Source of the DNA: a virus
Lineage: Duplodnaviria > Heunggongvirae > Uroviricota > Caudoviricetes
Direction: 5' to 3' (one strand)
Virus record (IMG/VR): IMGVR_UViG_2563366856_000002
Coordinates: 1 to 35,102 of that record
Length of the DNA: 35,102 bases
Positions within the stretch are counted from its first letter, which is position 1. Each line of letters begins with the position of its first letter. This document shows, piece by piece, positions 1,685 to 14,557 of this stretch. The translations under genes and the position numbers were made by a program. The notes beneath the pieces are model-generated. The model did not search any database. It saw only the letters and a program-made list of their open reading frames with translations, and had not been told where the DNA came from.

Positions 1685-2018
1685 AGCCACTTCATAGTTG
1701 CTTAAAACTATAAAAGAGATGTAATCTTAAAGAAGTTCACTGATCAAAGATAACCTTGTACCGCCGATACTCCCGTATCCTGCATCCTGTAGTACTGGCG
1801 GTTCTTGCCGCTGCTCTGATGCGATTCGTCATTAATCCTTTTCGAACATTTCCTACCATGATACCAGTATTCTGGTAATGGCCAATGGAGGCTGGTATTT
1901 CATTAGGGAACACCAGAGGATAGAAATTGAATATAACTTCTGCTTCTCAAAACAGACTGTTTGCTTCTTTTTCATGTATGGTGATAAATTTGCGGTGGCG
2001 TAGAGGCGTTTAAAATTT

Positions 2019-3146
2019 TTACAACGCTATCTTGTTCCATCCTTTGCCTCGGTCGTCATGGTATCGATCTGTCTGTCGCTGTGTTTTATGGCCAAGTAGT
2101 TTTTGTGTATCTAACCCCTGTTCTTTGTACAGACGTTCAGATAAAGACCTTTGTTCATGGAATGTGGCAGGTGAACCTTCTCCCCAGTCAATTCCTGCTA
2201 AATCTCTCGCTTTACTAAAATTCATCGTCAATGTATTGGATTTAACTTGTGCGCCACGTTCTGCCTGTGATGTTGCACGGAAAAAATGCACTAAATATGG
2301 GCTAACCGCATAGTCTCGGCAGCGCGCTACAACATCGCGTAAACTCCAGTTAATCGCATTGAGGCGAAGAGAAAGAGGGATAGCGATTTTGCTTCCAGTC
2401 TTTTCCTGAATGACGTGAAGATGATCTTCCCAAATATCACTAAATTTCATTTTGGATATATCTCCCAAACGCTGCCCAGTGACCAAAGCTAGGAGCATGG
2501 CATTTCCCATGTAACGATGATTGGCGTCTGCTATATCGAATATTTTTTGCCATTCTTCCAGGCTGAGGCGTTGACGGGTAATTTTTCTTTTGGGTTGCTT
2601 CGTCGCAAGAGCAGGGTTATACCCTGGCGGAACTTCGCCATAATGCTGTGCTTCCTTAAACACATCGATCAATACAGACCTAACGACTTGGGCCATTCTA
2701 GGCTGTCCAGCTGCAATATACTCATCAAGCAATTGTGCTATATCTCTAACATCAACGGATGAGATCAACTTCATTCCTGCTCGTTCTCTGAGCAAGGATA
2801 CTGGTTTAGCTTTTTGCTTATAGGTGTTGAGTCTTATATCACCACTTTTGAGCCTGTCATCCTGGATCGCTTGATAGCGATCTAACCAGGTTGACGTTGT
2901 GATCGCTTTTCCTTTGCTGGTTGCGATCCTATCACTGATAGCTAGAATCTGCCGGGTTCTTTGCTCAGCCAGACGAGTGTTAGCTTCAGTGGCAATAGCA
3001 ATAGCTTCAGCTTCATTTGTGCCCAACGAATGAAATTTCCCGGTCACTGGATGCTTATATCGCCAATAGACTTTATTTACTTTTCTACTATAAAGCGGAT
3101 ACAAGTTAGGTACTGAAACATTATTTTTACGTGGTCTGGCTGCCAT
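2019..3146 (-). CDS. int: tyrosine site-specific integrase (lambda Int family)
   Basis: 375 aa; C-terminal catalytic region ...LGHKTQRQTDRYHDDRG with conserved R, H-x-x-R and Y; start overlaps xis 3' end as in lambda. Confidence 0.9.
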   Translation of the reverse strand: MAARPRKNNVSVPNLYPLYSRKVNKVYWRYKHPVTGKFHSLGTNEAEAIAIATEANTRLAEQRTRQILAISDRIATSKGKAITTSTWLDRYQAIQDDRLKSGDIRLNTYKQKAKPVSLLRERAGMKLISSVDVRDIAQLLDEYIAAGQPRMAQVVRSVLIDVFKEAQHYGEVPPGYNPALATKQPKRKITRQRLSLEEWQKIFDIADANHRYMGNAMLLALVTGQRLGDISKMKFSDIWEDHLHVIQEKTGSKIAIPLSLRLNAINWSLRDVVARCRDYAVSPYLVHFFRATSQAERGAQVKSNTLTMNFSKARDLAGIDWGEGSPATFHEQRSLSERLYKEQGLDTQKLLGHKTQRQTDRYHDDRGKGWNKIAL

Positions 3147-5060: not shown

Positions 5061-5112
5061 GGTTTGAACGAGTGGCCAAGGAGTGCAAGGATTATCAAAA
5101 AAAGGAGGTTGT

Positions 5113-5661
5113 ATGGAAGACGCGCTTTACGCTTTTAATTACACACAGAACCGGGACAAGTTATTTGCTAACTTGATTAGCATCATTGATGGAATCATTG
5201 CAGATGGAGTTGTCCGTGAAGAGGAGGTTCTTTACTTAGATACATGGTTACTTGAAGCAAAGCAGATTATCAATAATGGAGTTATAAAAAGTCTATCTGC
5301 ACGGGTGTCGGATATTCTTGCGGATGGAATAATCACATCAGAAGAACGTGATGACCTTAAAAATAGCCTTCTCCAAATACAGAGGGAAATTCTTGATATC
5401 CCTGAAATTGATTTTTACTCCAAGGATGTAGATGTCCATTTACTTAATGGACTATGTAAAGGATTAATTGCTGATCGGAACTTAACTCAAGAAGAAATAA
5501 GATATCTTAATTGGTGGCTTGAGCAAAATGGAGCTTTGAAGAACAACTACCCAGGAAAAAAACTTTATGCACTTGTAAAGGAAATTCTTAAAGATGGTGT
5601 TATTACTGAAGATGAGAGTTTAACTCTACATAAGGCATTATGTAGACTTCACAGGATGTGA
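5113..5661 (+). CDS. TerB-like tandem-repeat protein (four ADG-x-[IV]T-x-EE helical repeats)
   Basis: 182 aa from ATG with AGGAGG RBS; four ~40-aa repeats: IIADGVVREEEVLYL / ILADGIITSEERDDL / LIADRNLTQEEIRYL / ILKDGVITEDESLTL, resembling the TerB/DjlA-N motif. Confidence 0.6.
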   Translation: MEDALYAFNYTQNRDKLFANLISIIDGIIADGVVREEEVLYLDTWLLEAKQIINNGVIKSLSARVSDILADGIITSEERDDLKNSLLQIQREILDIPEIDFYSKDVDVHLLNGLCKGLIADRNLTQEEIRYLNWWLEQNGALKNNYPGKKLYALVKEILKDGVITEDESLTLHKALCRLHRM

Positions 5662-5662
5662 C

Positions 5663-6004
5663 TTGGAAAGTGGGGTGGTGGATGGTTTGGCGACCAGGCT
5701 GCCTATTGATGTAGAGGCTTCGATAGAGTTAGAGGGTAAAACCTATTGTCTTACAGGCACTTTTGTTGCAGGAAAGAGAGCCGTAGTTGAAAATTTGATT
5801 AAAAATGCTGGTGGGAACATCAGTAGTGGAATTACTCAAAAGTTGGATTTTTTAGTAATTGGGACGCTTTCCTCCCGTGATTGGAAATTCTCTAGTCACG
5901 GAAGGAAGATCGAAAAGGCTATATCTTATAGAGATGATAATGGTGCAAAACTTAAAATTATTTCTGAAGAAATGCTTTTCGATGCATTACCAAGTTCGCG
6001 ATGA
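5663..6004 (+). CDS. BRCT-domain protein
   Basis: 113 aa; GKTYCLTGTF...R...LIKNAGGNISSGITQKLDFLVIG...KIEKA...KIISEEMLFDAL matches the LigA-type BRCT pattern (GKT.vLTG...G..v..sVskktd.lV.G...gsKl.KA); TTG start 1 nt after upstream stop with AGGA RBS. Confidence 0.65.
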   Translation: MESGVVDGLATRLPIDVEASIELEGKTYCLTGTFVAGKRAVVENLIKNAGGNISSGITQKLDFLVIGTLSSRDWKFSSHGRKIEKAISYRDDNGAKLKIISEEMLFDALPSSR

Positions 6005-6673
6005 CCAGAATACCCTACCTATAACATGAATTCTGGCTCGTCTATCTTCAAAGGTGAGTATTTCATCTGGGTACTCATCTTTGTTGAAGCTTCTAAGAAT
6101 CAAGCCACCGTCAGGTAAGTTGATAAGTATTTTAACCCTTAGCAATACACCATCTCGTACGGCATAAAGATCGCCATCACGAATAGGAACGGTTTGAGAA
6201 ATATCAACGGCAACAAGATCTCCATTATTGAGAACCGGTAATAAACTGTTCCCCCATATTTTTACGATCTTGGCATTAGATGCACATACGCCAGATTTTC
6301 TCAAATCTGCTCTTCTTAACGGAAACCAGTCAATAGCTGATTCAACTATTTCAGCCAGACATCCGTTACCTGCCGATAACTCGACATCTAAAACAGGAAT
6401 GTTTACGAAAATATCGGGGTCTAATGCGGTGCTTTCTGCTTCTTTTACAACAAGATCAGGTATGGATGCGTTGTCTTCAATACCAAGTTGTAACCACTTT
6501 TGTGATACACCTAAAACTTTTGCAATTTCTTTAATTTTGCGCGGTTGTAGAGTTTCGCCATTCTCTATTTTGGCTACAGATTGTTGTGAAAGTCCAATTT
6601 TTTCAGCTAGTTGAGCTTGGCTCATGCCAGCTTTCTCTCTACCTATCTTTAATCGTTCTGCCAGTGTTTTCAC
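5987..6673 (-). CDS. cI: CI-like prophage repressor (HTH_XRE N-domain plus S24 LexA-like autopeptidase)
   Basis: N-terminal HTH (MSQAQLAEKIGLSQQSVAKIENG), Ala-Gly cleavage site (ELSAGNG), Ser (GNSL) and Lys (RVK) of S24 catalytic dyad. Confidence 0.9.
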   Translation of the reverse strand: MKTLAERLKIGREKAGMSQAQLAEKIGLSQQSVAKIENGETLQPRKIKEIAKVLGVSQKWLQLGIEDNASIPDLVVKEAESTALDPDIFVNIPVLDVELSAGNGCLAEIVESAIDWFPLRRADLRKSGVCASNAKIVKIWGNSLLPVLNNGDLVAVDISQTVPIRDGDLYAVRDGVLLRVKILINLPDGGLILRSFNKDEYPDEILTFEDRRARIHVIGRVFWSSRTW

Positions 6674-7981: not shown

Positions 7982-8923
7982 ATGAGCACTAAATTAACCG
8001 GCTATGTATGGGATGGTTGCGCTGCATCAGGCATGAAGTTATCCAGCGTGGCAATTATGGCCCGCCTGGCTGATTTCAGTAATGACGAAGGTGTGTGCTG
8101 GCCATCAATTGAAACCATTGCCCGTCAGATTGGCGCGGGGATGAGTACCGTCAGAACGGCTATCGCACGGCTGGAAGCAGAAGGCTGGTTAACGCGTAAG
8201 GCGCGTCGCCAGGGTAACCGCAATGCGTCGAATGTTTATCAGCTTAACGTTGCGAAGCTTCAGGCAGCGGCATTTTCTCAACTGTCAGATTCTGACCCGT
8301 CAAAATCTGACGCATCAAAATCTGACCCGTCAAAATTTGATGCGTCGAAATCTGGCAAAAAAGCGGGTTTTCACCCGTCAGAATCTGGCGGGGATCCGTC
8401 AGTAAAATCAAAACATGATCCGTCAGATAAAAAACCTTCTCGTCCGGACGCTTCGCAACCGGACACGCAGACGGCTGAACAGGATTTTTTAACTCGCCAT
8501 CCTGATGCGGTTGTATTCAGCCCTAAAAAGCGCCAGTGGGGGACGCAGGATGATTTGACCTGCGCACAGTGGCTCTGGAAAAAAATCATCGCCCTGTACG
8601 AGCAGGCTGCCGAATGTGACGGCGAGGTGGTTCGTCCCAAAGAACCGAACTGGACAGCCTGGGCAAACGAAATTCGCCTGATGTGTGTGCAGGATGGTCG
8701 TACTCACAAACAAATCTGCGAGATGTACAGCCGCGTCAGCCGCGATCCGTTCTGGTGCCGTAACGTGCTCAGCCCGTCGAAGCTGCGGGAAAAATGGGAT
8801 GAGCTTTCCCTGCGCTTATCGCCGTCCGTCAGCACGTACACAGAAAAACGCGAAGACCCGTACTTCAAAGCCAGTTACGACAATGTGGACTACAGCCAGA
8901 TCCCGGCAGGATTCAGGGGGTGA
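7982..8923 (+). CDS. replication initiation protein (lambda O-like role; N-terminal HTH)
   Basis: 313 aa; N-terminal winged-helix region; internal iteron-like DNA repeats; position after cII-like gene. Confidence 0.75.
   Translation: MSTKLTGYVWDGCAASGMKLSSVAIMARLADFSNDEGVCWPSIETIARQIGAGMSTVRTAIARLEAEGWLTRKARRQGNRNASNVYQLNVAKLQAAAFSQLSDSDPSKSDASKSDPSKFDASKSGKKAGFHPSESGGDPSVKSKHDPSDKKPSRPDASQPDTQTAEQDFLTRHPDAVVFSPKKRQWGTQDDLTCAQWLWKKIIALYEQAAECDGEVVRPKEPNWTAWANEIRLMCVQDGRTHKQICEMYSRVSRDPFWCRNVLSPSKLREKWDELSLRLSPSVSTYTEKREDPYFKASYDNVDYSQIPAGFRG
8284..8432 (+). repeat. iteron-like direct repeats inside the replication gene (putative ori)
   Basis: Seven imperfect copies of CCGTCAAAATCTGAC-like units (e.g. 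GACCCGTCAAAATCTGAC, GCATCAAAATCTGAC, CCGTCAAAATTTGATG, CCGTCAGAATCTGG, GATCCGTCAGTAAAATC, GATCCGTCAGATAAAAAAC), followed downstream by an AT-rich stretch (GGATTTTTTAACT at about 8482-8494). Confidence 0.65.
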
Positions 8924-9414
8924 GCATGAGTCTTTTGAATGACGTTCAGAAATTCATTGAAGCCCATCCGGGCTGTACTTCCGGAGACATTGCGGATGCT
9001 TTTGCTGGTTACTCACGGCAGCGCGTTCTGCAGTCAGCAAGCAAGTTACGTCAGAGTGGGCGTGTGGCTCACCGTTGTGAAGGAGATACACGCAGACATT
9101 TCCCGCGCCTGACTGAGAGAGCGCAGGATCCGGAACCACAACCAGTTCGTGAAACCAGACCTGTGCGCAATTTCTATGTCGGCACTAACGACCCGCGGGT
9201 GATTTTGTGCCTGACCCGCCAGGCGGAAGAACTGGAGTCCAGGGGCTTATACCGTCGTGCTGCAACGGTGTGGATGGCGGCATTCCGTGAAAGCCACTCC
9301 CAGCCAGAACGAAACAATTTTCTGGCGCGTCGTGAACGGTGTTTACGGAAAAGCAGCAAGCGGGCTGCATCAGGTGAAGAGTGGTATCTGTCAGGGAATT
9401 ACGTGGGGGCTTAA
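8920..9414 (+). CDS. winged-helix / PerC-like putative regulatory protein
   Basis: 164 aa; C-terminal ELESRGLYRRAATVWMAAF resembles PerC-family motif as recalled; occupies the slot where a helicase loader is usually found. Confidence 0.45.
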   Translation: MSMSLLNDVQKFIEAHPGCTSGDIADAFAGYSRQRVLQSASKLRQSGRVAHRCEGDTRRHFPRLTERAQDPEPQPVRETRPVRNFYVGTNDPRVILCLTRQAEELESRGLYRRAATVWMAAFRESHSQPERNNFLARRERCLRKSSKRAASGEEWYLSGNYVGA

Positions 9415-10067
9415 TGAGTAATAAATATTGCCAGGCGCTGGTGGAACTGCGGAACAAACCAGCCCATGAACTGAAGGCAGTGGGCGATCAGTGGCGCACG
9501 CCGGATAACATTTTCTGGGGAATTAACACCCTGTTTGGTCCGTTTGTTCTGGATCTGTTCACTGACGGTGATAACGCCAAATGTGCCGCGTATTACACGG
9601 CGGAAGACAACGCGCTGGTGCATGACTGGTCAGAACGTCTTGCGGAGCTTAAAGGTGCTGCCTTTGGTAATCCCCCATACAGCCGCGCCAGTCAGCATGA
9701 GGGGCAATACATCACCGGCATGCGTTACATCATGAAGCATGCCAGTGCCATGCGTGATAAAGGCGGGCGCTATGTTTTCCTGATCAAAGCTGCCACCAGC
9801 GAAGTGTGGTGGCCGGAAGATGCAGATCATATTGCTTTTATTCGCGGGCGTATTGGTTTTGAACTGCCTGCCTGGTTTATACCGAAGGACGAGAAGCAGG
9901 TGCCGACAGGAGCTTTCTTCGCTGGTGCTATTGCTGTTTTCGACAAGACCTGGAAGGGACCGGCAATCAGCTACATCGGGCGCGATGAACTTGAGGCATG
10001 TGGTGAGGCCTTTCTGGCGCAGGTTCGCCAGCAGGCGGAAAAACTGGTCAGGGAGATGGCGGCATGA
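9414..10067 (+). CDS. phage-type DNA N6-adenine methyltransferase (Dam-like)
   Basis: NPPY catalytic motif (GNPPYS); start ATG overlaps upstream stop (TAATG). Confidence 0.85.
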   Translation: MSNKYCQALVELRNKPAHELKAVGDQWRTPDNIFWGINTLFGPFVLDLFTDGDNAKCAAYYTAEDNALVHDWSERLAELKGAAFGNPPYSRASQHEGQYITGMRYIMKHASAMRDKGGRYVFLIKAATSEVWWPEDADHIAFIRGRIGFELPAWFIPKDEKQVPTGAFFAGAIAVFDKTWKGPAISYIGRDELEACGEAFLAQVRQQAEKLVREMAA

Positions 10068-10390
10068 CGACATTAACTCAATGCCAGCAGCAGGTGCTGG
10101 ATATGCTGATTTCTTACCAGAAAGAACGAGGCTTCCCGCCAACCAATCAGGAGGTGGCAACCATGCTGGGATACCGTTCAGTGAATGCAGCGGTGGAGCA
10201 TCTTCGCGCACTGGAGAAAAAAGGCGTCATCACGATAAAGCGTGGCGTGGCCCGGGGGATAACGCTTCATACCGCGGTGAAGGGCGACGACAGCGAGGCG
10301 GTCGGGATTATCCGCTCACTGCTTGCCGGTGAGGAAAACGCCAGGCTGCGTGCAGCCCACTGGTTACATGAGAGGGAGCTGAAAGTATGA
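10064..10390 (+). CDS. LexA N-terminal DNA-binding-domain-like protein (no peptidase domain)
   Basis: LTQCQQQVLDMLISYQKERGFPPTNQEVATMLGYRSVNAAVEHLRALEKKGVI closely parallels LexA residues 1-70 ([53 protein letters not shown]); only 108 aa. Confidence 0.7.
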   Translation: MTTLTQCQQQVLDMLISYQKERGFPPTNQEVATMLGYRSVNAAVEHLRALEKKGVITIKRGVARGITLHTAVKGDDSEAVGIIRSLLAGEENARLRAAHWLHERELKV

Positions 10391-10776
10391 AGCTAATACT
10401 GCCTTTTCCGCCCAGCGTGAACACGTACTGGCGACACCCCAACAAAGGGGCGTTTGCAGGTAAGAGTCTGATAAGCGCGGCGGGGCGCAAATTCCAGAGC
10501 GCGGCGTGTGCAGCAATAGTTGAACAGTTACGTCGTCTGCCGAAACCAACGTCGGCACCTGCTTCAGTGGAGATCGTGTTGTTTCCTCCGGATAACCGGA
10601 TCCGCGATCTGGACAACTATAACAAGGCACTGTTTGACGCCCTGACCCACGCGGGTGTGTGGGAAGACGACAGTCAGGTGAAAAGAATGCTGGTGGAGTG
10701 GGGACCGGTTATCCCGGAAGGGAAGGTCGAGATCACTATCAGTAAGTACGAGAAAACGGCGGGTGCAGCCGCCTGA
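10387..10776 (+). CDS. rusA: RusA Holliday junction resolvase
   Basis: Strong resemblance to E. coli RusA including DxDN motif (RDLDNYNKALFDALT) and overall length. Confidence 0.9.
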   Translation: MKLILPFPPSVNTYWRHPNKGAFAGKSLISAAGRKFQSAACAAIVEQLRRLPKPTSAPASVEIVLFPPDNRIRDLDNYNKALFDALTHAGVWEDDSQVKRMLVEWGPVIPEGKVEITISKYEKTAGAAA

Positions 10777-10795
10777 GCAAAAGGAGAAACGAAGT

Positions 10796-11605
10796 ATGAA
10801 TAATCTGATGGTCATTGATGGTATTGAAGTTCGTCGTGATGCTTATGGGCGTTACAGCCTGAACGATCTGCATCGCGCAGCAGTAGCATCTGGTGCAAAT
10901 GCCAGAACCAAGGAGCCGGGAAAGTTTCTTTCCAGCCAACAAACTGTTGAGCTTGTTCATGAATTGACCAACACCCAGAATTTGGGTGTTGACCCGGTGA
11001 GTGTGATTCATGGGGGAAATGAACGGGGAACGTATGTCTGCAAGGAACTGGTGTATGCCTATGCAATGTGGATCAGCCCGTCATTCCATCTGAAGGTGAT
11101 CCGTACTTTCGATATGGTAACCAGCGCACCGGAAAAATTATCCGGACAGGCTGCTGACAAGATGCAGGCTGGCGTGATCCTGCTGGACTTTATGCGCCGG
11201 GAGTTAAACCTGTCTAACTCTTCAGTGCTTGGTGCCTGTCAGAAACTCCAGGAGGCTGTTGGCTTACCGAATCTGGCACCGCGCTATGCCATTGATGCTC
11301 CTGCTGATGCACACGATGGCTCAAGTCGCCCGACACTGTCACTGAGCGCACTGCTGAAACAGTATGGTATACGCCTGACGGCTAATCAGGCATATCACCA
11401 GATGGTGAAACTGGGGATCGTCGAGCAGCGCGAACGATACAGCTGTACCGCGATTAACAACATCAAAAAATTCTGGTCGCTGACAGCGAAAGGTTGCATG
11501 TTCGGCAAGAACATCACCAGTCCCGCAAATCCGCGCGAGACGCAGCCGCATTTCTTCGAATCCCGATTCCCTGAGCTGTTAAAGCTGCTCGATACTGTTC
11601 ATTGA
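10796..11605 (+). CDS. KilA-N domain protein (putative antirepressor-like)
   Basis: N-terminal NLMVIDGIEVRR...YSLNDLH...KELVYAYAMWISPSFHLKVIRTF matches KilA-N pattern; AAGGAG RBS before ATG. Confidence 0.7.
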   Translation: MNNLMVIDGIEVRRDAYGRYSLNDLHRAAVASGANARTKEPGKFLSSQQTVELVHELTNTQNLGVDPVSVIHGGNERGTYVCKELVYAYAMWISPSFHLKVIRTFDMVTSAPEKLSGQAADKMQAGVILLDFMRRELNLSNSSVLGACQKLQEAVGLPNLAPRYAIDAPADAHDGSSRPTLSLSALLKQYGIRLTANQAYHQMVKLGIVEQRERYSCTAINNIKKFWSLTAKGCMFGKNITSPANPRETQPHFFESRFPELLKLLDTVH

Positions 11606-11606
11606 G

Positions 11607-12602
11607 GTGACCGTGAGAGCACTACTGACCCCTGAAATTGCCCCGCGTATGGGGATCGTATTGTTCAGGCCCGGTTCAGAGCTGATGCCCCTGTTTATGC
11701 AGGGGCGTGTACTGCTGGAGCCTGAGCCGGAGCATTATTCATCTTTCGCCAGTGGTGCCGTTCCCGCGGCATCACAACCGCTGGCGGATGATCCTGCCGT
11801 TCGGGCCGTGTTCCGTAATGAGGCAGTGATTCGTCGTGCTGGTGGGGTGGAATGTCTTGAAAGCTGGTTACTTCGTGAAAAAGGCTGCCAGTGGCCTCAT
11901 TCCGACTGGCACAGCGAGAACATGACCACAATGCGACACGCGCCGGGCGCAATCCGTCTGTGCTGGCACTGCGATAATCAGTTACGTGATCAGTTCACGG
12001 AGCGGCTGGAATCAATGGCAACGGATAACTGTGCCCGTTGGGTGTTGTCTGTAGTCCGTCGGGATCTCGATTTTGATGATAACCATGCCGTGACAATGCC
12101 GGAACTGTGCTGGTGGCTGATTCGTAATGACCTGGCGGATGCCTTACCTGAAAGCGCAGCCCGTAAGGCGCTGAGATTACCGAAACCTGTTGTGCCGTCT
12201 GTCACCCGGGAAAGTGACCTTGTGCCTTCGGTTCCTGCCACCAGCATCATCCTGGATAAAGCGAAAAAGGTGCTGGCGCTGAAAGTGGATCCGGAGTCGC
12301 CGGAGTCTTTTATGTTACGCCCAAAAAGCCGCCGCTGGGTTAATGAAAAGTACACGCGCTGGGTTAAGACACAGCCGTGTGCATGTTGTGGAAAGCCTGC
12401 TGATGATCCCCACCATCTGATAGGCCACGGTCAGGGTGGAATGGGTACAAAAGCGCATGACCTCTTTGTGTTGCCTTTGTGCAGAAAGCATCACGACGAG
12501 CTGCATGCGGATACCGTGGCATTTGAAGAGAAGTATGGCTCTCAGCTGGAGCTGATATTTCGTTTTATCGATCGTGCGCTGGCAATTGGCGTACTGGCCT
12601 GA
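11607..12602 (+). CDS. DUF968-family protein with C-terminal HNH-like motif
   Basis: C-terminal CACCGKPADDPHHLIGH...LCRKHHDELH Cys/His cluster; resembles YdfU-type prophage proteins. Confidence 0.65.
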   Translation: MTVRALLTPEIAPRMGIVLFRPGSELMPLFMQGRVLLEPEPEHYSSFASGAVPAASQPLADDPAVRAVFRNEAVIRRAGGVECLESWLLREKGCQWPHSDWHSENMTTMRHAPGAIRLCWHCDNQLRDQFTERLESMATDNCARWVLSVVRRDLDFDDNHAVTMPELCWWLIRNDLADALPESAARKALRLPKPVVPSVTRESDLVPSVPATSIILDKAKKVLALKVDPESPESFMLRPKSRRWVNEKYTRWVKTQPCACCGKPADDPHHLIGHGQGGMGTKAHDLFVLPLCRKHHDELHADTVAFEEKYGSQLELIFRFIDRALAIGVLA

Positions 12603-12619
12603 TTTTGTGGAGAAAGTTG

Positions 12620-12967
12620 ATGCGTGATATGTATGAAGTGATGGATCGTTGGGGAGCTTGGGCTGCTTCAGACAATAGCGGAGTGGACTGGCAACCGGTA
12701 GCCGCTGGCTTCAAGGGGCTTTTACCTCATGGCAAAAAGTCCCGGATTCAGTGTGATGATGATGAGGGGCTCATGATCGATGGGTGCGTAGCTAGATTAA
12801 GAAAGTACAAACCAGAAGAGTATGAGTTAGTTATAGCCCATTTTGTGGTAGGGATTTCATTGCGAGCCATTGCTAAGAAGAGAAAGTGTTCGGATGGGAC
12901 TATCAGGAAAGAGTTGCAAACATCGCTTGGTTTCATTGAAGGCATTGTTTGCACTCTTGCCTGTTAA
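12620..12967 (+). CDS. late-gene antiterminator Q (phage antitermination Q family, small type)
   Basis: DRWGAWA...AAGFKGLLP...QCDDDEGLMIDGCVARL...CSDGTIRKEL..GFIEG matches the small Q-family pattern as recalled; located immediately upstream of the late/lysis region. Confidence 0.7.
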   Translation: MRDMYEVMDRWGAWAASDNSGVDWQPVAAGFKGLLPHGKKSRIQCDDDEGLMIDGCVARLRKYKPEEYELVIAHFVVGISLRAIAKKRKCSDGTIRKELQTSLGFIEGIVCTLAC

Positions 12968-12988: not shown

Positions 12989-13873
12989 TTATATTGGGCG
13001 CTTTGAATTCGATTTAAAGCGTCTTCCACTTATTCCAGAAACCCAAATGTCTTCCTCAAGAAAGTCAAGAAGGGCTTTTATTTCTTTTTTTGATGAAGGC
13101 ATGACAATTTTCTCAACACCGCCAACTATTATGGTTTGTAAGGGGAAATTAACTTTAGCAGCTTCGGATTTAAACTTTGACATATTTTGGGGTGTTAGCA
13201 TCCCAGTCTGATTTATTAGTGTTACTTTATTTCTTATCACTGTATCTGCAACGGATTTTAGATCAAAACCTTGGGGAGTAGAAAATACACTAAGTTGACT
13301 AAATGCATTAAGTTCTTGGTCAGTAGCAGCAGAAAAATAGGACGACATGTCAAAAATGCTTCTTAGATTAAAGAAACTCTTAAATCGTATTGTATCATTG
13401 ATAATTATTGCAACTAGTTTATCATCAACATTAAAACCGATGCTATTAGCTTTACTAAAGGTAGTTTTGCTTGCAAAAAGCTTTCCAAAGAATGATTTTG
13501 AGGTATCTAAGATTTGTTTTTTGTTGAAAGTTTGTAGTGCAATAATATTGGGGTTTGCTGGCGCGTCAACACCAACAAATAATGCTTTAATATAACCAAT
13601 ATCAATTTGGCTAGGATCCCAGATAGGCACGGCGGTAGGCCTATTGACTGCGTCAATCAGGCGTGCAGAATCAGTAAAGTTTTGTATTTCAAAACACTCA
13701 CTATGTTTTGGTGTATAACCGGCATAGAATGGTATCATATTGTTATGATGACTTTCAAAATATTGACGCTGTTGTTGGAAAATGGCCGTAACAGAAGTAC
13801 TTGCTGTTGCATCAAGTTCGACTCTAACAATTCTCGTTGCAATTGTATTATCTATTACTGCAAAAAGTGCCAT
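12989..13873 (-). CDS. hypothetical 294-aa protein, second gene of an AT-rich two-gene operon (possible KwaB-like)
   Basis: AT-rich; opposite strand to all flanking phage genes; 5-nt gap to upstream membrane-protein gene. Confidence 0.6.
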   Translation of the reverse strand: MALFAVIDNTIATRIVRVELDATASTSVTAIFQQQRQYFESHHNNMIPFYAGYTPKHSECFEIQNFTDSARLIDAVNRPTAVPIWDPSQIDIGYIKALFVGVDAPANPNIIALQTFNKKQILDTSKSFFGKLFASKTTFSKANSIGFNVDDKLVAIIINDTIRFKSFFNLRSIFDMSSYFSAATDQELNAFSQLSVFSTPQGFDLKSVADTVIRNKVTLINQTGMLTPQNMSKFKSEAAKVNFPLQTIIVGGVEKIVMPSSKKEIKALLDFLEEDIWVSGISGRRFKSNSKRPI

Positions 13874-13878
13874 GGTTA

Positions 13879-14400
13879 TTATCCTTTAACATGTAGAAAT
13901 GTGTAGTCTGTTAATTGAATAACTGTAAATTTGATATCTTTAATATCAGTAATAACTGATTTAGAAATCAATACAAAACCTACGCCGGTGTCATCTTCAG
14001 CTTCGTAAAATTTATAACCGATAAGTGACAATACTGGGTTAAAGTTATAGTTCTCGGAAAAGCTGATGTAAAATAACAATGATAAATAAAAGAATAACGC
14101 ATATGCTTTATTTTCAGCAATAGAATCTGTTCCTAGGAGAGGGAATAAATAGCTTAAGAAATAATTAGTTACTTCTTTGTTAGCGGGAGAAACTGAACTA
14201 ATATTTTTTGTCAGAGGTTCAAGTTGTTTCTCAGCATATTGAATCAGGCCTATTGCTAATAACCAACTTGCTATGCCAACGCATAAGCTATATTGCATCA
14301 GCCAAACCGTATCTTTTACATATCCAATAAAAAATAGAGTTGCGCAAACAGGTGCAATTGAGCTGGCTGTTAATAATAAGCGTGCTAATTTGTTCATCAT
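13879..14400 (-). CDS. integral membrane protein (about 4 TM helices), first gene of the two-gene operon (possible KwaA-like)
   Basis: Hydrophobic segments LARLLLTASSIAPVCATLFFIGYV, VWLMQYSLCVGIASWLLAIGLI, VTNYFLSYLFPLLG, AYALFFYLSLLFYISF. Confidence 0.6.
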   Translation of the reverse strand: MMNKLARLLLTASSIAPVCATLFFIGYVKDTVWLMQYSLCVGIASWLLAIGLIQYAEKQLEPLTKNISSVSPANKEVTNYFLSYLFPLLGTDSIAENKAYALFFYLSLLFYISFSENYNFNPVLSLIGYKFYEAEDDTGVGFVLISKSVITDIKDIKFTVIQLTDYTFLHVKG

Positions 14401-14557
14401 GATATCCTTTGTACTGTTTATGCATACAGCACTTTACATCATGTACTCCAAAGTATCTATCTTGTGAAGAATCTTACACTAAATACTACAGAAAAAGTTA
14501 ACGCGTACGCAAAAAGTATTATATCGTGTTAAGAGTGGTTACTTTGCCACACAGCTT

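Follow-up and report, generated by a model that had tools for sequence, protein, structure and literature searches.

A phage-encoded LexA-type DNA-binding domain that lacks the protease domain and carries a conserved, predicted helical tail

Introduction

What would a temperate phage do with the DNA-binding head of LexA in a protein that has no protease domain? The question is raised by the virus record IMGVR_UViG_2563366856_000002 of IMG/VR (Caudoviricetes), analysed here over its whole length of 35,102 nucleotides (hereafter, the window), which carries at positions 10064 to 10390 a gene for a protein of 108 residues. This gene is named below the LexA-DBD gene, after the LexA-type DNA-binding domain (DBD) that it encodes. 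The window represents a temperate phage in its integrated form, of the SfI/SfII/vB_EcoM-689R6 type; its early region is lambdoid and its tail that of a myovirus. Over the tested stretch, it is 100% identical to a prophage of Escherichia coli H1827/12, in which the protein is recorded as RefSeq WP_000210170.1. The reading that we favour, with a probability of about 0.42, is that of a damage-insensitive mini-LexA, which would act in the lytic phase as a repressor of LexA-controlled promoters.

A LexA-Type DNA-Binding Domain without the S24 Domain

The gene and the parts of its DBD are as follows.

10064 to 10390, + strand: LexA-DBD gene, 108 codons from ATG to TGA (Pfam PF01726, PHROG 362, RefSeq WP_000210170.1)
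10064 to 10267, + strand: LexA-type winged helix-turn-helix (wHTH), residues 1–68 (AlphaFold2 (AF2) predicted local distance difference test (pLDDT) ~90; Foldseek match 3jso_A; hhalign)
10181 to 10219, + strand: recognition helix VNAAVEHLRALEK, residues 40–52 (alignments, with contact residues from PMC11442139 and PMC3091678)

An earlier reading of the bare sequence, referred to below as the original prediction, had recognised in this open reading frame the N-terminal winged helix of LexA, and this assignment is well founded. The Pfam model LexA_DNA_bind (PF01726; cut-off, 23.7 bits) matches residues 1–65 over 65/65 model positions, with E=2.9e-19 and 69 bits, and in a phmmer search of all PDB sequences LexA proteins were the sole matches (E=1e-15 for E. 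coli LexA). When the family profile was aligned with E. coli LexA by hhalign, the homology covered residues 1–71 at 99.6% probability and 49% identity. The AF2 model, with a mean pLDDT of 84.7, shows the LexA topology, namely, three helices (residues 6–22, 28–35 and 40–52) and a two-stranded wing (56–58 and 66–68), and Foldseek superposes it on the DNA-bound E. coli LexA 3jso_A with a root-mean-square deviation (rmsd) of 0.9 Å over 67 columns at 51% identity. An alignment with host LexA that had been made by eye is thereby confirmed at 49–51% identity over residues 1–71. PHROG 362 is matched with E=3.7e-58 across residues 1–108 (106 profile positions), and at the level of sequence the protein clearly belongs to this catalogued group, whose members are also known as 'LexA family transcriptional regulator'.

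The original prediction had also stated that the S24 peptidase/dimerisation domain is lacking, and rightly so. No match to Peptidase_S24 (PF00717) was found in the 108-residue protein, which ends at residue 108, while the CI repressor of the same window (5987–6673) does match this model. The NCBIfam equivalog model for lexA, TIGR00498, scores 69.4 bits, under its curated cut-off of 110.95. The protein is a LexA-type DBD, its similarity to LexA is far above chance, and the S24 protease/dimerisation domain is truly absent. It is not a LexA proper, as three defining features fail, i.e., the S24 domain, the Ala-Gly cleavage site and the equivalog score. Self-cleavage, already denied to the protein on the earlier reading, is indeed impossible, the domain that holds the catalytic Ser119 and Lys156 being absent. 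A88-G89, the pair that single-sequence alignment sets at the cleavage site, is unconserved.

A Conserved C-Terminal Hairpin

Two further features make up the part of the protein that lies beyond the winged helix.

10268 to 10288, + strand: flexible linker, residues 69–75 (pLDDT <50 at 72–75; gap-rich, variable alignment columns)
10289 to 10372, + strand: amphipathic two-helix hairpin, residues 76–103, putative dimerisation module (AF2 pLDDT ~90; family alignments)

The linker resembles the LexA hinge in length. The two tail helices span residues 76–88 and 93–103 in the AF2 model. When 1.84 billion representatives were searched exhaustively with HMMER, short homologues of 106–135 residues came to light, which align through the tail at 36–50% identity. 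The hydrophobic positions 79/80, 82/83, 86/87, A93, A97, W100 and L101 are kept down to ~40% identity, and the faces between them are variable, as befits a helical hairpin of amphipathic character. The motif EA..(I/L)(I/L)R.LL...A..RA..WL, characteristic of the tail in the short family (~105–112 residues), is present in the 108-residue protein. The last 40 residues thus constitute a conserved and confidently predicted hairpin, and not a leftover.

This tail has no counterpart in LexA, since the family-profile homology detected by hhalign stops at residue 71, and a search against PDB chains returned no homologue of it (best E=1.1). A hairpin with ~10 conserved apolar residues cannot bury them alone, from which we infer pairing with a second copy, and we lean slightly towards the view that the tail dimerises the protein. 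Foldseek matches to the full-length model include the wHTH repressors Rv1846c (2g9w_A), which we take to be BlaI-like, and MepR; both dimerise through their C-terminal helices. Repressors of the BlaI/MecI and PadR types share with the 108-residue protein an N-terminal wHTH of ~70 residues and a short helical C-terminal dimer part. They differ from it in that no sequence relationship exists, the full-length rmsd is ~9 Å, and the DBD is here specifically of the LexA type.

Within the tail, the stretch 'LLAGEE' was considered as a vestigial LexA cleavage site and rejected. Single-sequence alignments by phmmer and with TIGR00498 reach residues 90–91 and put A88-G89 ('AGE') under A84-G85-E86 of LexA. 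Close relatives have A-N or V-G in place of the pair, distant ones lack it altogether, and it lies past the end of the profile homology. The region is predicted to be helical, with residues 88–89 at a helix end or turn in the AF2 model, whereas the LexA site sits in a strand-loop.

Residues That Would Read the DNA

According to a review of the LexA-DNA crystal structure (PMC11442139), the residues that 'primarily' read the CTGT half-site are S39, N41, A42 and E45, and the specificity changes when they are mutated. The window protein keeps all four of them, as do 8/14 members of the short family if E or D is allowed at position 45. More generally, T5, Q8, S39, N41, H46, K53, G61, R64 and G65 are common to true LexAs and the short family. 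The conservation of this DNA-facing scaffold together with the readout residues argues for DNA binding as the function under selection in the short family, likely at a half-site of the CTGT type. With regard to the 108-residue protein itself, DNA binding is very likely from these alignments, and occupation of an SOS box, which the original prediction had raised, is plausible.

Distribution, Annotation and Divergence

Of 5,426 complete E. coli genomes, 2,233 carry the LexA-DBD gene at a nucleotide identity of at least 90%, and so do 50 phage records. At the protein level, a tblastn search of 50,697 phage records (E<=1e-3) returned 63 records, among which are SfV (orf42, 'unknown'), SfII, SfIV, the cdtI phage, mEp460, mEp390, and Stx2a and Stx2c phages. 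The labels in use are 'LexA family transcriptional regulator', 'LexA DNA binding domain protein' and 'transcriptional repressor' (PHROG 362), but the protease-less protein has also been mislabelled 'SOS-response repressor and protease LexA' or 'RecA-mediated autopeptidases'. The neighbouring Dam methyltransferase, for its part, is mislabelled 'phosphoadenosine phosphosulfate reductase' in PHROG-derived annotation; errors concerning the gene or its neighbour are seen, for example, in KF030445, AB285204, LR595868 and NC_019716. No functional study of an enterobacterial short LexA-DBD protein was found in the literature searched.

Among the 67 related viral loci that were fetched, 66 hold the LexA-DBD gene. 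A gene for the Holliday-junction resolvase RusA lies downstream in 65/66 of these, directly or after a small insertion, the exception (L012) ending close to a contig end. Dam mostly precedes the LexA-DBD gene, although it is missing from a number of loci, and a DUF968 gene comes after. Compared with the window across these loci, the LexA-DBD protein shows 46–51% identity, Dam ~78% and RusA ~70%, and the LexA-DBD protein thus evolves more rapidly than the enzymes on either side of it. The gene keeps its slot even in phages whose LexA-DBD protein is 46–50% identical. All divergent subfamilies were obtained from Enterobacteriaceae, namely, Cronobacter, Kosakonia, Enterobacter, Cedecea, Klebsiella and Salmonella; a scan of genome contigs with P0122, the representative of the Cronobacter subfamily, gave two loci only.

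The same DBD is also met in other company. A sister variant found in L003–L010 (L004, 5974–6477) joins it to an unrelated C-terminal part of ~90 residues and occupies the slot between the methyltransferase and RusA. Natural fusions combine the LexA DBD with the C-terminus of DUF968 (P0156, one sequence from one contig, with a weak sub-threshold HNHc_6 match) or with an HNH_3 nuclease (P0194), and tandem pairs of LexA DBDs occur, in one case together with a PTPS domain (the shuffled-module set consists of P0156, P0194, P0128, P0129 and P0150). The sister variant, the fusions and the tandem pairs together mark the LexA head as a mobile, shuffled DNA-binding module in such elements.

Operon Position and Expression

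The neighbours of the LexA-DBD gene in the early region are listed below.

7982 to 8923, + strand: O-like replication protein
8920 to 9414, + strand: PerC-like regulator
9381 to 10067, + strand: Dam-type N6-adenine methyltransferase, the upstream cistron (Pfam PF05869, E=3e-45; syntenic in most related loci)
10387 to 10776, + strand: RusA Holliday-junction resolvase, the downstream cistron (Pfam PF05866, E=6e-15)
10763 to 11605, + strand: KilA-N protein
11607 to 12602, + strand: DUF968/HNH protein, two genes downstream
12605 to 12967, + strand: Q antiterminator

The order on the + strand is cro, CII-like, O-like, PerC-like, Dam, LexA-DBD gene, RusA, KilA-N, DUF968/HNH and Q. The ATG of the LexA-DBD gene, preceded by GGAG ~9 nt upstream, overlaps the Dam stop (ATGA, 10064–10067), and its own stop overlaps the RusA start (ATGA, 10387–10390). 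Every junction in the series from cro to Q overlaps or abuts, and no promoter-like site was found on the + strand between these two genes. From these two observations, the gene is read as a translationally coupled delayed-early cistron, of the nin type, between Dam and RusA. A promoter of its own that would give expression in the lysogen was considered and rejected on the same scan of the + strand. The gene should therefore be silent in the lysogen and expressed upon induction or infection, and its product, as that of a delayed-early cistron of the lytic operon, would have its effect once induction has taken place, not during lysogeny. Annotated neighbours in phage and E. coli records agree with a position in the nin-type region ahead of RusA.

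Operator Search and the SOS Box at the Kiwa Promoter

Candidate operators were sought with an approximate position weight matrix (PWM) of the SOS box, built from E. coli boxes described in the literature. It points to a single site.

14412 to 14431, no strand assigned: TACTGTTTATGCATACAGCA, LexA-type operator, candidate cis target (PWM, 22.2 bits)

This is the sole site of the window in the range of real boxes, the next best reaching 11.2 bits and the maximum in shuffled sequence being 16.4. No other intergenic inverted CTGT..ACAG occurs in the window (any orientation tested, gaps of 0–15), and the kwaA start follows 12 bp downstream of the site. The minus-strand pair 12989–13873 and 13879–14400 is a Kiwa defence system (PADLOC: KwaA, E=1e-82; KwaB, E=2e-149), a moron that has been inserted between Q and the holin/lysis genes. 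The box suggests that Kiwa is here LexA-repressed and damage-inducible.

As a target of the whole family, this box was rejected, the Kiwa cassette being present in 33/5,426 complete E. coli genomes versus 2,233 for the LexA-DBD gene. TACTGTTTATGCATACAGCA is thus a candidate target in the phage of the window, but it is not specific to the family and is not the reason for its existence. Nor is an SOS box constantly linked to the gene, as a strong box within ~6 kb is present in a minority of the 67 loci, and in differing places. A dedicated phage operator in the window was likewise considered and rejected. Inverted repeats between 6600 and 15000 consist solely of the immunity operators and origin iterons, with no operator-like repeat near the LexA-DBD gene. 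The scan for gapped palindromes (k=5 and 6; gaps of 0–14) gave none above shuffles save a trivial A5/T5 pair (3x vs a shuffle maximum of 2), and symmetric single-substitution variants of CTGT-N6-10-ACAG in the intergenic DNA of the window gave nothing notable.

In related phages, the strong SOS box TACTGTAAAAATATCCAGTA recurs 3–5 kb downstream of the LexA-DBD gene (L004, 11440–11459; similar in L003, L005–L007, L026, L045 and L067), and in L004 the gene that directly follows it bears a methyltransferase motif of the DPPY type. SOS-boxed morons are thus a recurring feature of this phage group. Another box, the perfect TACTGTTTTTATATACAGTA (26.5 bits), was observed at 2189–2208 of L013, as well as in L021 and L030, within the coding sequence of a CI-type repressor (1722–2423, minus strand), where it falls in the hinge between the helix-turn-helix and S24 domains. 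These prophages are of the P0122-type subfamily, which is found in Cronobacter, and also carry the LexA-DBD gene.

Comparison with Known Systems

The host LexA (1LEA, 3JSO, TIGR00498) shares with the 108-residue protein the winged helix, at the identity and rmsd given above, the residues S39, N41, A42, E45, K53, G61, R64 and G65, and the linker length. It differs from it by the S24 domain with its catalytic serine and lysine, by the conserved Ala-Gly, and by R28 and E44, which are replaced in the phage protein, and it has no equivalent of the new hairpin. Further, the phage protein is encoded in a lytic operon and is not autoregulated from an SOS-box promoter of its own.

LexA(Ind-) alleles cannot be inactivated by RecA and hold the SOS regulon off, and the natural LexA 1–84 fragment is a weak binder and a substrate of ClpXP degradation. 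Like these forms, the 108-residue protein presents a LexA DBD beyond RecA inactivation, and an SOS-off phenotype is predicted for it. Unlike the N-terminal fragment, it is a conserved and presumably stable gene product with a tail of its own.

By analogy, the closest characterised counterpart is gp6 of the Bacillus tectivirus GIL01, a truncated LexA homologue which binds GaCACAnnTGTGaC, a palindrome overlapping the -35 element of the late promoter P3, and activates this promoter (Fornelos et al. 2018, PMC6182141). Both proteins are phage-encoded, consist mainly of a LexA DBD, belong to an early operon and are not RecA-cleavable. However, the C-terminal extension of gp6 is limited to the wing, whereas the 108-residue protein adds a 40-residue hairpin; gp6 activates late genes, whereas those of the window phage lie downstream of a Q antiterminator; and the host phylum and the virus family differ. 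The presence of Q makes a late-activator role of the gp6 kind unlikely here. No tectivirus or Bacillus record was present among the tblastn matches listed (40 of the 63 records, E<=1e-3) or in the name and host tallies displayed, and on the phage matches listed no relationship of the 108-residue protein to the gp6 lineage is detectable beyond the LexA fold.

Two other phage early proteins, the LexA co-repressor gp7 of GIL01 (PMC6182141) and Listeria AriS (ANT/KilAC), which inhibits the SOS response (PMC9043618), hold the SOS regulon down and set a hierarchy among co-resident prophages, as would be the case here. Neither is homologous to LexA, and both work through protein-protein contact with it or with RecA, while direct occupation of the operator is proposed for the 108-residue protein. 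AriS and the Cro of the 'bully phage' were also considered as relatives of the 108-residue protein and rejected, as they are unrelated to it.

Proposed Mechanism and Alternative Explanations

The 108-residue protein would be made when the rightward early operon, from cro through Q, is transcribed, either after induction or on infection. Two copies would pair via their hairpins, and the pair would set two LexA-like recognition helices on a palindrome of CTGT half-sites, i.e., the SOS box or a close variant of it. LexA-controlled promoters would then be repressed beyond relief by activated RecA. Host SOS genes, SOS-controlled morons, including the phage's own Kiwa, and LexA-controlled functions of rival prophages would in this manner be re-silenced during phage replication. 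That canonical SOS boxes are the real targets and repression the outcome is given somewhat less than an even chance on the sequence evidence.

Besides the domain identity, the missing protease domain, the tail, the readout residues and the operon position described above, we count in favour of this mini-LexA the single true SOS box at the promoter of the defence genes of the window, together with the strong boxes in related phages, as well as the GIL01 gp6 precedent, which attests a functional truncated LexA homologue in a phage. Several observations weigh against it. Positions 42–45 differ by subfamily (AAVE, AATD, AAFE, AAAE, TVFI and AAAS), and the Enterobacteriaceae that host these subfamilies share one SOS box. 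R28 and E44, present in 14/16 and 13/16 full-length LexAs, respectively, are replaced in 14/14 short-family members, the window protein having V at position 44, and E44 is among the DNA-contacting residues in an older model based on nuclear magnetic resonance (PMC3091678; also PMC13416735). In addition, the new tail would set the dimer geometry and half-site spacing, which may differ from those of LexA, and the faster divergence relative to Dam and RusA is a pattern common among regulators whose private sites co-evolve with them. GIL01 gp6, too, has evolved an operator other than that of LexA and is an activator.

The main alternative is a phage-specific regulator in which the LexA fold would be retained while the operator is a private one, different from the SOS box, and which would repress or activate a particular phage or host promoter in the way gp6 does at P3. 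The family-wide replacement of R28 and E44, the variation at positions 42–45 among subfamilies in hosts with one SOS box, and the rapid evolution are all in keeping with it. So are the sister variant, in which the same DBD bears another C-terminal module in the same slot, and gp6 itself, where a changed operator, GaCACAnnTGTGaC, goes together with activation (PMC6182141). Nevertheless, the subfamily of the window keeps all four crystal readout residues, no over-represented palindrome, CTGT-type variant or operator-like repeat emerged from the scans of the window, and a phage endowed with a Q antiterminator does not need a late activator of the gp6 style. We regard a private operator as unlikely, though as a serious contender.

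It is improbable that the protein serves as a DNA-targeting accessory subunit of RusA, of the DUF968/HNH protein or of Dam, with the tail as a docking element. The near-universal linkage to RusA with start/stop overlap would fit, as would the fusions P0156 (C-terminal part of DUF968) and P0194 (HNH_3) and the position of DUF968, two genes downstream in the window. However, the entire nin-type region is syntenic, so that linkage says little; Dam is missing from a number of loci; RusA homologues that are ~68–70% identical adjoin quite different C-terminal modules; and P0156, represented by one sequence from one contig, could be a deletion artefact. RusA, moreover, works without such a partner protein.

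The original prediction had envisaged mixed complexes with host LexA, which would poison or change LexA function. The DBD fold is common to LexA, and a mixed occupancy of half-sites is conceivable; isolated LexA N-terminal domains were reportedly found by Kim and Little in 1992 to bind operators cooperatively. The suggestion is nonetheless unsupported and very improbable, as LexA dimerises through its C-terminal domain, which is lacking here, and the tail has no homology to LexA past residue 71 or to any solved structure. As for a retained inactivation by SOS, in which 'LLAGEE' would be cut in trans by LexA, CI or RecA*, it is scarcely credible, since the alignment of A88-G89 with A84-G85 is confined to the single-sequence comparisons by phmmer and TIGR00498 and is contradicted by the lack of A-G conservation, the end of the profile alignment at residue 71, and the predicted helix end or turn at 88–89.

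Novelty and Implications

The call of a LexA-family domain is already public through PHROG 362 and RefSeq. What is new is the conserved tail, the fixed delayed-early slot and the faster evolution compared with the neighbours, as well as the family-wide loss of R28 and E44 together with the retention of the four readout residues. The original prediction had missed the conserved C-terminal hairpin, the position in the lytic operon, the existing LexA-family annotation and the gp6 precedent. Nothing in the system is structurally or conceptually unprecedented, and we do not claim a new kind of system.

If SOS boxes are bound, the LexA regulon would be curbed after induction, directly and in a manner insensitive to RecA, by the product of a prophage gene that is very common. 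SOS mutagenesis and filamentation in induced cells would be affected, as would the competition among co-resident prophages, many of which use LexA-controlled antirepressors, and the expression of SOS-controlled defence systems and toxins. In its most far-reaching and distinctly unlikely form, prophages in ~40% of E. coli, including Stx2a/2c, Cdt and Shigella serotype-converting phages, would encode a RecA-proof SOS 'super-repressor' that re-occupies LexA boxes once lysis has been chosen. Host SOS, SOS-boxed defence, the phage's own Kiwa among it, and the antirepressors that rival prophages keep under LexA control would then be shut down; a prophage hierarchy would be set and the induction dynamics of toxin phages shaped in polylysogens. 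If, on the other hand, the protein has its own operator, it would be the second independent case, after GIL01 gp6, of a LexA head made into a private phage regulator, and its new minimal tail would probably serve for dimerisation. Prophages of pathogenic E. coli and Shigella carry the gene very commonly, and the hypothesis is easy to test.

Additional Observations in the Early Region

The PerC-family regulator encoded at 8920–9414 (164 residues; RefSeq yfdN) has a weak N-terminal PHROG match to a MarR-family regulator and, like the LexA-DBD protein, is fast-diverging, with 23–42% identity among related phages, mostly 40–42%. Within the O-like gene, positions 8284–8346 hold arrays of inverted repeats of the GTCAGATTCTGAC / GTCAAAATCTGAC type, most likely the origin iterons. 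Right next to cI, at a frequent site of lambdoid exclusion or defence morons, two + strand genes were noticed. The first, at 5663–6004, codes for a 113-residue BRCT-domain protein (Pfam, E=3.9e-6), and the second, at 5083–5661, codes for a 192-residue protein with no family assignment.

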